From positions 1 through 13,897 of the forward strand of contig CAZALK010000034.1 in the NCBI GenBank assembly GCA_964486045.1: DNA of 13,897 nt. Reading direction: 5' to 3'. The notes beneath the pieces are model-generated. The model was not told the origin of the DNA. It did no database searches and saw only the letters and a program-made list of their open reading frames with translations. Shown one piece after another: positions 5,576 through 10,152 of this stretch. This DNA comes from an uncultured archaeon (GTDB taxonomy: Archaea > Asgardarchaeota > Lokiarchaeia > Sigyniarchaeales > SOKP01). Position 1 is the first letter of the stretch. Each line of letters begins with the position of its first letter. The position numbers were made by a program, and so were the translations under genes.

Positions 5576-6094
5576 TTATTTATTACGAGATTCCTTCAAA
5601 ATGGTATTCTTCGCATAACTAACTAAACCACCTGCAGATATAATTTCTTGTAGAAAAGAAGGGATACTTCTTATTTGATATTTTGTTTTTGTGGAAATAT
5701 TTTTAATGATTCCTTTCGCAATTATTACTTCAAGATCATCATTCGTATTTATTAGTTTAATATTTTCAAATTTAATTATTGGTAACCCAATGTTTATAGC
5801 ATTACGAAAAAATATACGAGCAAATGAAGCTGCGATTATACAATTAATTCCTGCTGCTTTAAGAGCAATTGGTGCTTGTTCTCTGCTCGATCCACATCCA
5901 AAATTAGCTCCCGCCACCATTATTGAATAACCGAATTTTTTCTGATTTTGGATAAAATCTTCATCGAAGTCTTCCATACAATGTTTGCCGAGATAATCCG
6001 GGTCTATTAATGTCAAATACCTGGCGGGAATAATTAAATCTGTATTTATATCTTTTCTATCATACTTTATTACTTTTCCAATCAATTCTTCCAC
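5576..6094 (-). CDS. leuD: 3-isopropylmalate dehydratase small subunit
   Basis: DINTDLIIPARYL, NFGCGSSREQAP and SFARIFFRNAINIGLP motifs; GTG start 1 nt after the leuC stop. The specificity loop reads YLTL, not the YLRT of methanogen homoaconitase small subunits. Confidence 0.9.
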   Translation of the reverse strand: MEELIGKVIKYDRKDINTDLIIPARYLTLIDPDYLGKHCMEDFDEDFIQNQKKFGYSIMVAGANFGCGSSREQAPIALKAAGINCIIAASFARIFFRNAINIGLPIIKFENIKLINTNDDLEVIIAKGIIKNISTKTKYQIRSIPSFLQEIISAGGLVSYAKNTILKESRNK

Positions 6095-6095
6095 C

Positions 6096-7370
6096 TTAAA
6101 TGAAGTTTGGTGAAGTAATATATCCTTTTAAAGCCGAAGCAGCAGCAACTGCAGGATTTGATAAAAATACTTCACTTTCTTTATGTCCCATCCTTCCTGT
6201 AAAATTTCTATTTGTTGTTGATATAGCTTTTTCTCCCTCAGCAAGGATACCCATGTGACCTCCCAAACAAGGACCACAAGTTGGGGTTGAAACAATGGCT
6301 CCACTATTAATGAATATCTCAAGTAATCCTTCCCTTAACGCTGTAAGATAAATCATTTGAGTTCCTGGGATAACAATGCATCTAACCTTAGGATGAATCT
6401 TTTTATTTTTTAATATCTTAGCAGCAATTCTTAAATCCTCCATACGACCATTTGTACAAGAACCAATTATTGATTGATCAATCTCAACTCTCATACTATC
6501 AACTTCAGAAATTGGCTTTGCATTCTCAGGTAAAGAAGGTAAAGCAACTTGTGGTTCTATATCCGTACAATCAACTTCTATAGTATCAACATACTCTGCA
6601 TTTTTGTCACTTTCATATATTTTATATTTTGAATTACCACGGTTTTTAATATAATCTAATGTTATTTTGTCAGGAGCAATTATCCCATTTTTAGCTCCTG
6701 CTTCAACTACCATATTGCACATTGTAAATCTGCTATCCATCGATAAGCTTCTAATAACTTCCCCTTCAAGTTCCATAGCATTATAAGTAGCACCGTCAAC
6801 ACCTATTTCACCAATTGTATGCAAAATTAGATCTTTTCCTGAAACCCATTCATTTAAAGTTCCAGAATAAATAAACTTCAATGATTCTGGTATTTTAAAC
6901 CAACATTTTCCCAAAGCCATTGCTACTCCTAAATCTGTGGAACCTACACCTGTAGAAAAAGCACCCACGGCACCATAAGTGCAAGTATGCGAATCCGCAC
7001 CAATAAATACATCTCCAGGTTGTACTAATCCTTGTTCTGGAATAAGGCAATGTTCAATTCCTCCGCGACCTACTTCAAAATAATTCAAAATTTTATATTT
7101 ATGAGCAAATTTTCTGAGAATTTCACACTGTTTTGCTGAAGCGATGTCTTTGTTTGGTGTAAAATGATCAGGGGTTAAAATTACATTATTTATATTGAAG
7201 ATCTTTTTCTCTGTTCCTTCAATGACTTTTTCAAAAACATTTATTGCAATTGGAGCTGTAATATCATTTGCTAGACATTTACTAATCTTAGCTGAAATAA
7301 AATCTCCTGCACTAGCATTCTTATTTTCACAATGCTCTCTTAAGATTTTTTCCGTAATTGTCAGTTCCAT
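6096..7370 (-). CDS. leuC: 3-isopropylmalate dehydratase large subunit (archaeal LeuC/HacA type, 4Fe-4S)
   Basis: Aconitase-family motifs PDHF, GADSHTCTYGA, IGSCTNGR, CGPCLGG, STTNRNFTGRMG; 424 aa; lies between leuA and leuD. Confidence 0.92.
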   Translation of the reverse strand: MELTITEKILREHCENKNASAGDFISAKISKCLANDITAPIAINVFEKVIEGTEKKIFNINNVILTPDHFTPNKDIASAKQCEILRKFAHKYKILNYFEVGRGGIEHCLIPEQGLVQPGDVFIGADSHTCTYGAVGAFSTGVGSTDLGVAMALGKCWFKIPESLKFIYSGTLNEWVSGKDLILHTIGEIGVDGATYNAMELEGEVIRSLSMDSRFTMCNMVVEAGAKNGIIAPDKITLDYIKNRGNSKYKIYESDKNAEYVDTIEVDCTDIEPQVALPSLPENAKPISEVDSMRVEIDQSIIGSCTNGRMEDLRIAAKILKNKKIHPKVRCIVIPGTQMIYLTALREGLLEIFINSGAIVSTPTCGPCLGGHMGILAEGEKAISTTNRNFTGRMGHKESEVFLSNPAVAAASALKGYITSPNFI

Positions 7371-7401: not shown

Positions 7402-9027
7402 TCATGAGTTTTTTTGTTTTACTAAAAGATTCAAACCTTTTATAAGCGAAAGCACTGAGCTCATTATAATATCTTCGTTTGTAGCACTCGCTTTTACAAT
7501 GTGATTAGTATCAATATCCATGATTTCAATTGTAGTTCTTCCTAACGCTTCAGTTCCCCCTGTAATTGCATCAATTTGATAATTCAATAATTTTACTTTG
7601 CTCATGGGTTCAAAACACTGGATAATTGCCTTAACACATGCATCAATGGGACCCACTCCTATGGATGAGGCGACTTTTTCAATAATATCTCCATTATTTA
7701 TAATTTTTAATCTTACAGTGGAAGAGGGGGTGACCGATCCCGTAATGACAGTCAATTCTTCAAGTTTTACAAATTGATCTTCCTCAGGTAATTCATCCAA
7801 AACATCTTTAAGTATCGCATAGAAATCTTCTTCTGTGACCTCATGTCCTTTATCTCCAAAATCTTTCACGTGGTCCATAATGGTAGTGAATTGTTCATTA
7901 GTGGCAACAATGCCCAATTCGTGCAATTTTGCTTTAAGGGAATGCCCTCCTGTATGTTTTCCTAATTTAATCGATTGTTTTATAATCTCTTCCACATCAT
8001 CGGAACGATTAATTCCAATTAATTCTGGTGTAATAGGCTCATATGCTCTTGCATGTTGAATCATTCCATGGGCATGTATACCTGATTCATGGGCGAAAGC
8101 ATTTTGACCTATTAAAGGACTTAAGCGGCCTATAGAAACTTTACCTCCACACAAGCTTTCAACTAATTTTGCAGTTGGAAATATCAATTTAGTATTTATT
8201 CGCATTGGAATTTGATACAAAGCGTAGAGAGACATAGCAGTTTCCGCAAATGAAGCATTTCCTGCGCGTTCGCCTAATCCCAAAATTGTTGTTTGCGCTT
8301 CAGAAGCTCCATTCTCAAAACCTGCTATTGTATTTGCTACAGCTAGCCCAAAATCATTATGGCAATGTACCGCAATCCTAATATTTTTTGGTAATGCTTC
8401 ATAATTTCTTCTTATAATATGTCCATATGCAGTTGGAGATATTGTTCCGACAGTATCTGGAATATTTATTCTAGTGACCCCACTTTCCACAGCAGCCTTA
8501 TTTACTTTAACTAGATAACCTAAATCTGACCGTGTGGCATCCTCAGCAGAAAACTGAATTATAGAAAAATGATCTTTAGCATAACTTACCATTTCTCTAA
8601 CAATATCAACAACTTCTTCTCTAGTCATTTTTAATTTTTTTTTTAAATGTAAATCTGAGGTTGCAATAAATAGATGAATTGAATCCATATCAGCTTCAAT
8701 AACTTTATCTATATCAATTTTTGTTGGTCTTGCTAATCCTATGATCTCTGAATCCAAACCTAACTTAGAAATTTCCTTGCAAGCATCAAAATCCCCTTGT
8801 GATATAACAGGAAATCCTGCTTCGATCACATCTACCCCTAAATTATTTAAGGTCTCGGAAATAGATATTTTTTCTTTAAGAGTAAAACTAATACCAGGGG
8901 TTTGTTCGCCATCGCGGAGTGTGGTATCAAAAAAATACGCTTGCTTAGGTAGAATTAAAGTTTCACGTATTTTCTCCATCATATCAGAAACCATAATATC
9001 GCTTTTCTCATTCATTTTTTTCCACAT
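7402..9027 (-). CDS. leuA: 2-isopropylmalate synthase (LeuA/CimA family) with C-terminal allosteric domain
   Basis: DTTLRDGEQTPG, PDTVG, HCHNDFGLAVAN, GLGERAGNA, AFAHESGIH and regulatory-domain GVGPIDA motifs. Citramalate synthase cannot be excluded. Start uncertain (ATG 9027 or 9015). Confidence 0.82.
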   Translation of the reverse strand: MWKKMNEKSDIMVSDMMEKIRETLILPKQAYFFDTTLRDGEQTPGISFTLKEKISISETLNNLGVDVIEAGFPVISQGDFDACKEISKLGLDSEIIGLARPTKIDIDKVIEADMDSIHLFIATSDLHLKKKLKMTREEVVDIVREMVSYAKDHFSIIQFSAEDATRSDLGYLVKVNKAAVESGVTRINIPDTVGTISPTAYGHIIRRNYEALPKNIRIAVHCHNDFGLAVANTIAGFENGASEAQTTILGLGERAGNASFAETAMSLYALYQIPMRINTKLIFPTAKLVESLCGGKVSIGRLSPLIGQNAFAHESGIHAHGMIQHARAYEPITPELIGINRSDDVEEIIKQSIKLGKHTGGHSLKAKLHELGIVATNEQFTTIMDHVKDFGDKGHEVTEEDFYAILKDVLDELPEEDQFVKLEELTVITGSVTPSSTVRLKIINNGDIIEKVASSIGVGPIDACVKAIIQCFEPMSKVKLLNYQIDAITGGTEALGRTTIEIMDIDTNHIVKASATNEDIIMSSVLSLIKGLNLLVKQKNS

Positions 9028-9052
9028 TTTTAAATTTGTTCAAGACATTACA

Positions 9053-9121
9053 ACCTTCTTATTATTATGAAAGAATCGATGAAACCTCTTTCAAGGATAA
9101 AGAAGGTCTACTATAATAATA
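9053..9121 (-). promoter_or_regulatory. Putative attenuator RNA structure upstream of leuA
   Basis: On the - strand mRNA: ACCUUCUU (9107-9100) is complementary to SD-like AAGAAGGU (9060-9053); inner stem UGAAAGAG (9093-9086)/UUCUUUCA (9075-9068); Leu-codon segment UAUUAUUAU (9121-9113) is complementary to AUAAUAAUA (9068-9060). Confidence 0.55.
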
Positions 9122-9176
9122 GTAAGTGTAATTCTAAAACACTTAAACTCAATTCTATTGAAGAAAAACACTTCAT
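9111..9176 (-). CDS. Putative leucine-rich leader peptide MKCFSSIELSLSVLELHLLLL (leuL-like)
   Basis: ATG 9176 to TTA CTA TTA TTA TAG (then a second TAG); 8 of 21 codons are Leu, the last four tandem; ends 83 nt upstream of leuA ATG 9027 on the same strand. In-frame upstream ATGs at 9221, 9236 and 9260 are alternative starts. Confidence 0.6.
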   Translation of the reverse strand: MKCFSSIELSLSVLELHLLLL

Positions 9177-9485
9177 GTAATTTTTAATGCAAGATTCAAA
9201 TGATTGGTGAAGTGTTCTCATATTTAATAATCTCATAGAATTGTATATTATAAAATACATTGATTGTAGTTTTAAAAATATTTCTATATCTTCTACTGTA
9301 GCTCCTAATTGATCCAAAGTAATTTCAAAGTAGTTATATTAAGGAAAAATAAATAAAATTAGTGTTAGTTTCTTGTTAACTTATCTAATATGCACTCTTT
9401 CTTTGGAATAGAAACCCGCAAACAAAAGAAATATTCCTAAAAGAAACTGAAACTTATTTAACTCAAAGAATAGGTCATAGTTCTT

Positions 9486-9548
9486 TCAAACCTGCAACTG
9501 GTGTAGTAATCCTATTATTAAACAAGAAATTAAAAGAATTACATTCAA
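9486..9548 (-). CDS. Possible second Ile/Leu/Val-rich leader peptide MNVILLISCLIIGLLHQLQV
   Basis: TTG 9548 to TGA 9488-9486; 12 of 20 residues are I/L/V; TATAAA 19 nt upstream of the TTG. AT-richness inflates I/L codons, so support is weak. Confidence 0.3.
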   Translation of the reverse strand: MNVILLISCLIIGLLHQLQV

Positions 9549-9648
9549 TTTTTAAAGTGAAAAATAATTTATAGGTTATTTCATAAGCAATTTTATTAAT
9601 TTATAGATTTTAATAAATATAGATTAGCTCTTATCGGTGTAGTTTAAA

Positions 9649-10152
9649 ATGGTTAACCCAGACGTGTTATTAAATTTTATTAAAGAAAGAAGAAGTATCA
9701 GAACATTCCAAGATAAACAAATTCCTGATGGGGAAATAGAAATGATTTTAGAGGCAGGAAGATGGGCACCTAGTGCTTCTAACCGTCAACCTTGGAAATT
9801 TATAGTAATTAAAAATAGAGATATCTTAAAAAAAATAGCAAGTGTTACTGGTTATGGTTGGTTTATCGGCGAAGCGTCATTTGCCGTAGCTATTGTTGGA
9901 AAACCGCGTACTAGTCGTAATTGGCATGTCATTGATACTTCCTTAGTTTCAATGAATATGATGTTAATGGCTTGGTCTTTAGGAATTGGAACTTGTTGGA
10001 TAGGTTCAATGAATAAAGAAAGGGCAAAGGAAATACTTGGTATACGCAGTAATGATTATCTTTTGACTGTTTTACCATTTGGATATATTCATGGGAGTAT
10101 CCCGGATCCTACTTATAGAAAACCTTTAAATAAAATAGTAAAGGAAATTTAA
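9649..10152 (+). CDS. Nitroreductase family flavoprotein
   Basis: RRSIRTF, WAPSASNRQPWKF and LGIGTCWIG FMN-binding motifs; 167 aa. Confidence 0.92.
   Translation: MVNPDVLLNFIKERRSIRTFQDKQIPDGEIEMILEAGRWAPSASNRQPWKFIVIKNRDILKKIASVTGYGWFIGEASFAVAIVGKPRTSRNWHVIDTSLVSMNMMLMAWSLGIGTCWIGSMNKERAKEILGIRSNDYLLTVLPFGYIHGSIPDPTYRKPLNKIVKEI

Follow-up and report, generated by a model that had tools for sequence, protein, structure and literature searches.

A candidate leucine-sensing leader open reading frame with a conserved stop-adjacent hairpin upstream of leuA-leuC-leuD in Asgard archaea

Introduction

Leader-peptide attenuation is a textbook bacterial mechanism and needs ribosomes that read the transcript during or soon after its synthesis. 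In the enterobacterial attenuators (leuL, Rfam Leu_leader RF00512; trpL, hisL, and pheL), a short open reading frame (ORF) with a run of cognate codons lies upstream, a hairpin whose folding is decided by ribosome position stands a few nucleotides (nt) after the leader stop, and several amino-acid pathways of a genome are equipped in this way. The actinobacterial LEU element, a Leu-run ORF before leuA with no obvious terminator, was described as a pseudoknot whose base stem joins the Leu codons to the leuA Shine-Dalgarno (SD) sequence, with SD-related pairing as its proposed mode of action (Seliverstov et al. 2005, PMC1262725). The mycobacterial polycysteine short ORFs, which are leaderless and form a regulon-like set, likewise lack a terminator, and a ribosome stalled on their cognate codons blocks an RNA duplex that sequesters the downstream ribosome-binding site (RBS) (Canestrari et al., bioRxiv 10.1101/834739). 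For archaea, no published report of a leader-peptide attenuator was found, and a tool paper states in general terms, without an example, that upstream ORFs (uORFs) regulate there too. Here, we describe a Leu-run leader ORF and stop-adjacent hairpin upstream of leuA-leuC-leuD in a 13,897-nt stretch of DNA from an uncultured archaeon of the Lokiarchaeia (contig CAZALK010000034.1 of assembly GCA_964486045.1; the whole stretch is called the window below).

This locus has the three features of the enterobacterial attenuators named above, the pathways of its genome being those of Leu, Trp, and Cys. It differs from them in its archaeal host, its longer leader (28–39 codons), the absence of a U-tract terminator hairpin, of conserved alternative hairpins and of an Rfam match, a Leu run that adjoins the stop, and a downstream RBS that is always open. 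It is like the LEU element in its Leu-run ORF, its want of an obvious terminator, and SD-related sequences, but its Leu-codon pairings are at shuffle level and its leuA SD is free. With the mycobacterial short ORFs it shares the want of a terminator and membership of a set, and it may share a geometry in which a ribosome stalled on cognate codons blocks an RNA duplex; unlike them, it leaves the RBS unsequestered and carries an SD-like motif for the leader ∼26–30 nt downstream of the predicted transcription start site (TSS). Its hairpin also ends 36 nt before the downstream ATG, in contrast to erm-type and polycysteine attenuators that unmask an RBS.

Results

A first-pass annotation, made from the sequence alone, had proposed a leucine leader peptide before this Asgard leuA-leuC-leuD operon. 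The observation is confirmed, far beyond chance: the ORF, its Leu run, a promoter-like box, and a hairpin are found in more than 50 species-level genomes. In the window, on the minus strand of which all of its features given here lie, the leader ORF (9111..9221) consists of 36 codons (MRTLHQSFESCIKNYMKCFSSIELSLSVLELHLLLL) and a TAG stop; its frame is open from 9338, and the conserved part begins at ATG 9221. It ends, as annotated, in the run L-H-L-L-L-L (TTA CAC TTA CTA TTA TTA; 9114..9131) followed by TAG TAG. The first stop (TAG, 9113-9111) lies 95 nt before the conserved leuA ATG; the 83 nt originally given is correct for the ATG at 9027 in the ORF list, whereas alignment of orthologues places the leuA start at ATG 9015-9013 (MNEKSDI...). 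A second in-frame TAG (9108..9110), rare among relatives (4/52), reaches into the hairpin, whose pairing begins with the final G of this codon.

Conservation was assessed in 56 Promethearchaeota loci, one per species, two of which show no leader but have only ∼130 nt of upstream flank and were set aside. Each of the 54 informative loci has an upstream ORF with at least four Leu in its last eight sense codons (at least five in 53), and the leader stop precedes the leuA start by 82–132 nt, mostly 87–99. All 54 share one layout: a box resembling a B recognition element (BRE) and TATA sequence, an SD-like motif, ATG, the Leu-run leader, the hairpin, a spacer, and the leuA SD and ATG. Among orthologous loci from the search for relatives, 11 of 16 carry the leader; the five without it belong to a neighboring family (one) and to two more distant families (four). 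In the host genome, a scan of 2,885 small ORFs (10–70 codons), each situated shortly before an ORF of 150 amino acids (aa) or more, found the window leader alone to have at least six Leu in its last eight residues. Among 75-nt stretches sampled after gene stops, 2.3% fold at −17.5 kcal/mol or below, the value of the window hairpin (mean −6.5), and typical gene ends of this genome have no hairpins. Chance, which the first-pass annotation had raised as a caveat (runs of UUA and CUA in AT-rich DNA), is excluded by the uniqueness of the leader among the 2,885 ORFs, the 2.3% hairpin rate, and the recurrence in 54 related loci.

Alignment of relatives, proposed as a check in the same annotation, revealed a conserved Leu run in 54/54 loci, with synonymous variation. 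When the last eight sense codons of 52 leaders are pooled, 331 of 416 encode Leu, and all six Leu codons are used (TTA 239, CTT 32, TTG 22, CTC 20, CTA 16, and CTG 2). TTA, the commonest Leu codon, accounts for 72% of Leu codons in leader ends as compared to 45% genome-wide. Residue purity of the last-eight region is 0.80 in the leader frame versus 0.40 and 0.47 in the other frames, and the CTT, CTC, CTA, and TTG substitutions preserve Leu in the leader frame only. The run is separated from the stop by 0–1 codon in relatives. The leader is 28–39 codons long, with an N-terminal pattern MK.LQ and a frame that is open in every species; a base-composition estimate gives a chance of ∼4–6% for such a frame to stay open in AT-rich DNA. 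A hydrophobic, Leu-rich C-terminal half of the peptide is kept and the middle is barely conserved; such weak constraint on the rest of the peptide is expected for a sensory leader, not for a functional protein, and a Pfam search of the leader peptide gave no match.

Upstream of the leader lies a promoter-like box (9269..9287), made of a purine-rich, BRE-like AGAAA and a TATA-like ATTTTTAAAA, with a consensus (GAAAAATTTTTAAAA) at constant distance in the 52-sequence upstream alignment. Over the 200 nt before the stop, the conserved order in these 52 sequences is GAAAAATTTTTAAAA, ∼60 nt, SD-like GGGAU/GAGAU/GUGAU, 7–9 nt, and ATG AAA .. CTT CAA. In the window, the SD-like motif is UGAGAUU (9229..9235), 7 nt before the leader ATG, and is conserved as GGGAU, GAGAU, UGGAU, or GUGAU. 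The usual archaeal TATA-to-TSS spacing predicts a leader TSS near 9250. The 16S rRNA 3′ end of the genome is GGAUCACCUCCU, and the words enriched before starts genome-wide are GAGGU, GGAGG, GGUGA, and GUGAU, which together argue that SD-led initiation is used in this host. The conserved box, SD-like motif, ATG, open frame, and in-frame Leu purity suggest that the leader ORF is translated.

A 57-nt hairpin (9052..9108), identified by its fold and by conservation in relatives, stands right after the leader stop. Both helices of the first-pass annotation are present where it had placed them: an outer helix of eight pairs between ACCUUCUU (9107-9100) and AAGAAGGU (9060-9053), which RNAfold extends by G9108-U9052 (9108-9100 with 9060-9052 in all), and an inner helix of 9093-9086 with 9075-9068. 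The minimum free energy (MFE) of −17.5 kcal/mol corresponds to z = −2.5 and is equalled by 3/200 shuffles. When relatives were folded, a comparable large hairpin was found in 58/58 (median z −3.1; z < −2 in 45/58), with pairing that begins between −3 and +5 nt relative to the stop-codon end in all 58 and a length of 40–67 nt (median 56; 52 measured). An Rfam cmscan of 8800–9800 (E ≤ 10) returned no Leu_leader, only chance snoRNA and miRNA matches of 15–20 bits.

The arm pairs vary widely among genomes, for example ACCUUCUU/AAGAAGGU, AUCCUUUU/AAAAGGAU, GCCUCCUCUCG/CGUGGAGAGGC, ACCCCUC/GGGGGGU, and AUCUCUCUUU/AAAGAGAGAU. Covariation, which the first-pass annotation had suggested looking for, was counted over the nine outer pairs in a MAFFT alignment of hairpins trimmed by each sequence's own fold, a count that is thus not fully structure-independent. 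Outer-helix cells are paired in 75.8% as compared to 71.5% in shuffles (0/500 reach the observed value), and 49 cells are changed on both sides versus 17.3 ± 3.9 (0/500 shuffles). Compensatory change occurs in 8 of the 9 pairs, and slid registers of the helix pair 45–68% of cells. As judged from this alignment, the outer helix covaries; it was the one part of the structure to give a clear signal.

The polarity of the arms is fixed. The 5′ arm (9100..9108) is pyrimidine-rich and anti-SD-like (GACCUUCUU), with a purine fraction of 0.15 in the core arm over 51 sequences; the 3′ arm (9052..9060) is purine-rich and SD-like (AAGAAGGUU), with a purine fraction of 0.89, and is distinct from the leuA SD. 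In 51/51 rows the 3′ arm exceeds the 5′ arm in purine content, which implies that the sequence of one arm matters and not the helix alone. Apart from this constant purine/pyrimidine make-up, the primary sequence of the hairpin is variable. Best duplexes of the 3′ arm with the 16S 3′ tail have a mean of −6.4 kcal/mol, as compared to −4.3 for those of the proximal leuA SD and −2.8 for background sequence, and the arm outmatches the proximal SD in 38/52; the likeness of the arms to SD and anti-SD, noted at first pass, thus holds. A two-codon mini-ORF (AUG UCU UGA, 9040-9048) lies 4 nt after the SD-like arm, and a similar AUG AAA UAA occurs in one relative (L031); the arrangement is not general.

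Between hairpin and leuA lies an unstructured, A-rich spacer of 36 nt (9016..9051; A 0.55, T 0.28, few T-runs) that contains an A/U box and the leuA SD-equivalent UGUGGA (9026-9021). The distance from hairpin 3′ end to leuA ATG has a median of 36 nt (interquartile range 35–39). Spacer MFE is 0.0 in the window, and relatives average −0.81 versus −1.21 kcal/mol for shuffles; a second hairpin beside the SD is not supported, the spacer being less structured than shuffles. The A/U box AAAUUUAAAAA (AAAUUUAAAWA, 9037-9027; consensus AAATTTAAAWAGGT) directly precedes the leuA SD and, at the level of primary sequence, ranks with the most strongly conserved blocks in this region; it does not lie at the distance required of a leuA TATA box. 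An internal leuA promoter, formed by this box or by TATA-like words in the hairpin, was considered and rejected: its TSS would fall inside leuA, and the TATA-like words are not kept in G+C-richer relatives.

In relatives, the leuA ATG has its own SD 7–9 nt upstream (AGGU, GAGG, or AGGAG), and the AAGAAGGU 3′ arm sits 37–45 nt upstream of the conserved start. Because of this distance and this SD, the hairpin does not sequester the leuA initiation region, contrary to the initial proposal that AAGAAGGU is a leuA SD hidden by the hairpin. Upstream of its start, the leuA frame is shut by TGA 9042-9040, so no start close to the 3′ arm can serve leuA. A further proposed pairing, of the Leu-codon segment UAUUAUUAU (9121-9113) with AUAAUAAUA (9068-9060), exists in the window (−4.8 kcal/mol; p = 0.03 versus shuffles) but is not conserved: pairing of Leu codons with the descending strand in relatives averages −2.60 versus −2.43 kcal/mol in shuffles and reaches p ≤ 0.05 in 4/52. 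No set of mutually exclusive hairpins (1:2, 2:3, 3:4) was found; there is a single conserved hairpin, and Leu-run and spacer pairings are at shuffle level.

The reported absence of a U-tract terminator was borne out. No U-tract follows the hairpin (longest U-run median 3 in relatives), and no T-run longer than 3 lies between the leader stop and the leuA ATG in the window. T-runs are depleted at both positions considered: those of at least 5 occur within 25 nt of the leader stop in 5/52 loci versus 22% of gene ends, and those of at least 4 in 17% of spacers versus 36% upstream of other genes.

The unbiased small-ORF scan of the host genome also surfaced leaders before Trp and Cys genes. The Trp leader (MILNMATVKSSAWRWQWPWR, then stop; contig C17, 41737-41800, plus strand; locus L112/L121) lies 170 nt before trpD (41971-43032; TIGR01245, 408 bits). 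Seven further genomes, which represent four families of the order and include G+C-rich ones, also have W-x-W-x-W leaders before trpD (e.g., ...TIAWSWRR* and ...HFWFWWAWRL*). The final Trp codon and the stop are covered by a small hairpin, after which T5 tracts are found in the host genome. The poly-Cys leader (MRINYEHKVRTSTSTCCCMCCCC, then stop; contig C25, minus strand; locus L111/L131) precedes a cysteine-synthase-like PALP gene (30963-31994, although translation probably starts 27 nt inside this frame; its best NCBIfam match, cysKM, scores below cut-off) and is a direct analogue of the mycobacterial polycysteine short ORFs. Three further genomes of the genus have it (...SCCCSFCCCC*, ...SCCCSTCCC*, and ...FRCCIFGCC*), and its Cys codons are able to pair with ACRACAG just after the stop. 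Inspection by eye places the final regulatory codons of both the Trp and the Cys leader within the 5′ arm of a small stop-spanning hairpin; the computed fold shows such a hairpin in some Trp leaders only, and that of the Cys leader was seen by eye alone. It is difficult to account for three product-matched leaders in a single genome other than by ribosome-based sensing.

The genes that follow the Leu leader on the minus strand are leuA, leuC, and leuD, in that order. leuA (7402..9015) encodes 2-isopropylmalate synthase (Pfam HMGL-like, HCS_D2, and LeuA_dimer; NCBIfam NF002085, 559 bits, cut-off 517); leuC (6096..7370) the large subunit of 3-isopropylmalate dehydratase (Pfam Aconitase; TIGR02083, 661 bits, cut-off 611); and leuD (5576..6094) its small subunit (Pfam Aconitase_C; TIGR02087 LEUD_arch, 177.5 bits, cut-off 109). 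The window is contig C34 of a 5.18-Mb assembly of 31% G+C, and the intergenic region has ∼24% G+C. LeuA relatives at 72–86% identity are all Promethearchaeota/Promethearchaeia metagenome-assembled genomes (MAGs), some with older Asgard labels; the next-best matches, at 41–47%, are from other archaea. The Asgard host assumed at first pass is correct. Three leuA/cimA-like paralogues of the same genome had no leader seen upstream. Further up the minus strand, beyond the leader promoter, are a 20-codon ORF (MNVILLISCLIIGLLHQLQV, TTG start; 9486-9548) and, after it, an inverted repeat (9399-9472; UUCUUUG...CAAAGAA, with inner AGGAAUA/UAUUCC). Neither has a counterpart in 14 close relatives, and both are probably due to chance.

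Discussion

The conserved arrangement points to an attenuator-type cis-regulator in which the time that a ribosome dwells on the Leu run determines whether the stop-adjacent hairpin folds and thereby controls leuACD expression, a reading to which we assign a probability of roughly 0.7. The anatomy, its conservation and covariation, the match of codons to pathway, and the lack of both a terminator and RBS sequestration are observed; we infer translation of the leader, the setting of ribosome dwell time by Leu-tRNA supply, the sign of the regulatory effect, and the step that carries it out. Transcription would start at the BRE/TATA-like box near 9280, and a ribosome would load at the SD-like motif and translate the 36-codon leader to TAG TAG. 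With plentiful charged tRNA-Leu, the ribosome would reach the stop and depart, and the hairpin would close; with scarce charged tRNA-Leu, it would linger on the Leu run. The front edge of a ribosome lies ∼9–13 nt beyond the A-site codon, and by this footprint arithmetic the ribosome would enter the helix only from the last one or two Leu codons or from the stop. On those last Leu codons, its front edge would stand inside the hairpin base and keep the outer helix open. Opening would free the purine-rich, SD-like 3′ arm ahead of the leuA start, which may then act as a strong upstream 30S landing site beside the weak proximal leuA SD; alternatively, an open hairpin may spare a long duplex from cleavage.

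Within this scheme, we tentatively prefer a steric account, at somewhat less than even odds, in which the closed hairpin is the negative state and its opening by a held ribosome raises leuA output post-transcriptionally. This is favored by tight packing of run, stop, and helix (the run adjoins the stop, and the stop adjoins the 5′ arm at −3 to +5 nt, so that ribosome and duplex may overlap), by the fixed arm polarity, by the Trp and Cys codons within a hairpin arm of the companion leaders, and by the lack of termination signals.

Several results weigh against sensing through this hairpin. Folding with a ribosome masked, which the first-pass annotation had put forward in the expectation that the leuA initiation region would be freed, leaves RBS access unchanged, with an unpaired probability of 0.64–0.68 whether the ribosome stands on the Leu run or on the stop. 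By the same RBS measure, the real leader (0.453) adds no pairing beyond that of dinucleotide-shuffled leaders (0.416). With the leuA RBS open in either hairpin state, the closed hairpin has no evident target to block, and to our knowledge no role is established for SD-like elements at a distance of 37–45 nt from the start. Runs of 4–8 Leu mean that a starved ribosome would first stall too far upstream of the hairpin, a point better accommodated by the kinetic alternative considered next. The coding signature is weak, with nucleotide diversities of 0.43, 0.42, and 0.47 at the first, second, and third codon positions. On the structural side, RNAalifold gave no consensus structure on a MAFFT alignment of 51 trimmed hairpins, the whole window structure laid on the first MAFFT alignment is paired in 62.2% versus 59.1% in shuffles, a weak excess, and related genomes are non-independent samples in the conservation counts. 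Given these alignment, RNAalifold, and kinship caveats, the case for covariation leans on the outer-pair count, the per-sequence z-scores, and the fixed position of the hairpin.

The alternative that survives best, which we consider unlikely rather than remote, is kinetic co-transcriptional attenuation with the role of the hairpin reversed. An early stall would let the hairpin fold behind RNA polymerase and protect the untranslated spacer, with the result that leuA is transcribed, while a ribosome at the stop would cover the 5′ arm, leave the hairpin unfolded, and expose RNA to termination or cutting, e.g., by FttA/aCPSF1. The geometry matches that of the 2:3 element of the Escherichia coli trp leader, where only a few nt separate the leader stop from the hairpin; the long Leu runs, with further Leu codons upstream, would suit a delay timer, and regulation would, as in the steric account, run in the sense expected of a biosynthetic operon. 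A termination factor that acts on nascent RNA, FttA/aCPSF1, is present in archaea (PMC11616081, PMC7515710, PMC8716108), and archaeal transcription-translation coupling has been discussed (PMC13681488). However, aCPSF1 termination is reported to correlate with U-tracts (PMC8716108), and the locus has none, T-runs being depleted after the stop and in the spacer. Folds of leader and spacer contain no conserved alternative structure or "region 4", the Leu run adjoins stop and hairpin instead of being held at the reach of a ribosome, and the hairpin would refold immediately once the ribosome departs. The steric and kinetic models predict opposite effects of 5′-arm mutations.

A bolder reading can be put forward, although we consider it doubtful: that the Leu, Trp, and Cys elements form an Asgard set of ribosome-sensed leaders, of which the Leu leader, with neither terminator nor RBS sequestration, acts in a way for which bacteria offer no known precedent, through a hairpin that mimics SD and anti-SD and is opened or closed by the leader ribosome. 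Candidate routes to downstream expression would be the hand-over of ribosomes or their standby loading across the base of the hairpin, trapping by a decoy SD, and duplex cleavage. The hand-over or standby idea is reminiscent of the uORF-plus-hairpin shunting of eukaryotic viruses. As to cleavage, the host assembly contains an ORF with an RNase III domain (contig C6, 205521-205826, plus strand; PF14622, 56.6 bits, above cut-off; open frame of 249 aa). PF14622 matched only bacterial ones among the control genomes, and the assembly has 7.8% estimated contamination.

The original model, in which the hairpin hides the leuA SD and the Leu-codon pairing with 9068-9060 serves as a pseudoknot or alternative switch, is now very improbable. 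Its pairings are present in the window, the Leu-codon duplex there exceeds most shuffles, and the arms do resemble SD and anti-SD. Comparison with relatives largely refutes it: the conserved leuA start, ATG 9015, is served by a separate SD, with the 3′ arm well upstream; TGA 9042-9040 bars an arm-proximal leuA start; the alternative pairing is at chance level in relatives; and RBS accessibility is unaffected. A similarly slim chance attaches to the view that the small ORF encodes a functional hydrophobic micro-protein, transcribed together with leuA, and that the hairpin is an intercistronic stabilizer or processing signal, with no Leu sensing. The conserved length, MK.LQ pattern, and Leu-rich hydrophobic C-terminal half would suit a micro-protein. 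Against this stand the lack of a Pfam match, the barely conserved middle, and the nearly flat codon-position diversity; the ORF is, moreover, always linked to leuA, and matching Trp (trpD) and Cys leaders in the same genome are left unexplained by a membrane peptide. Least probable of all is an untranslated structured leader carrying a protein or ligand site, with UUA repeats that are compositional or act at the RNA level, which would accord with the AT-rich genome and intergenic region, with the genome-wide prevalence of TTA, and with the protein-binding reading favored for the LEU element by its authors (PMC1262725), but not with a kept frame, ATG, and SD-like motif in an ORF open in 54 species, with synonymous substitutions that hold Leu in the leader frame only, or with a stop fixed relative to the hairpin, whose primary sequence, unconserved apart from arm make-up, argues against a ligand pocket.

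The example is clear, widely conserved, and located in the archaeal lineage closest to eukaryotes. Taken together, the Leu, Trp, and Cys leaders suggest that amino acids are sensed in archaea through ribosome dwell on sensory mini-ORFs. A Leu element with neither terminator nor RBS sequestration would, once its action is worked out, serve as a probe of the feedback that archaeal translation exerts on transcription, initiation, or RNA stability, and it would bear on the relation to eukaryotic uORF control; were the bolder reading true, uORF-type translational sensing would be placed in that same lineage. An annotation rule for finding unannotated regulatory ORFs in archaeal MAGs is also gained.

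At one further locus (L009; genome G039, contig C95), a Leu leader (...LLLLLLNLGLLLLLL, then stop) lies ∼360 nt upstream of leuA, unusually far. The leuA 5′ region is duplicated around an N run there, and the distance is probably a scaffolding artefact. Leu-run ORFs were also seen upstream of leuA in other archaeal phyla. Two Altiarchaeota loci have such ORFs at 1248-1340 (L100; ...RLLLLLLRQRA*) and 1179-1280 (L105; ...LQLLLLLRLRA*), in which GCGRGC at the ORF end can pair with GCUCGC ∼25 nt past the stop to form a stop-spanning hairpin; an A-U pair in one locus is replaced by G-U in the other. In a euryarchaeal MAG, a Leu-run ORF upstream of leuA (L103, 1357-1416; ...FLLSLRLLLVG*) is perhaps a similar leader, and a hairpin of reversed polarity (GAGGAGG...CCUCCUC) begins at its stop.

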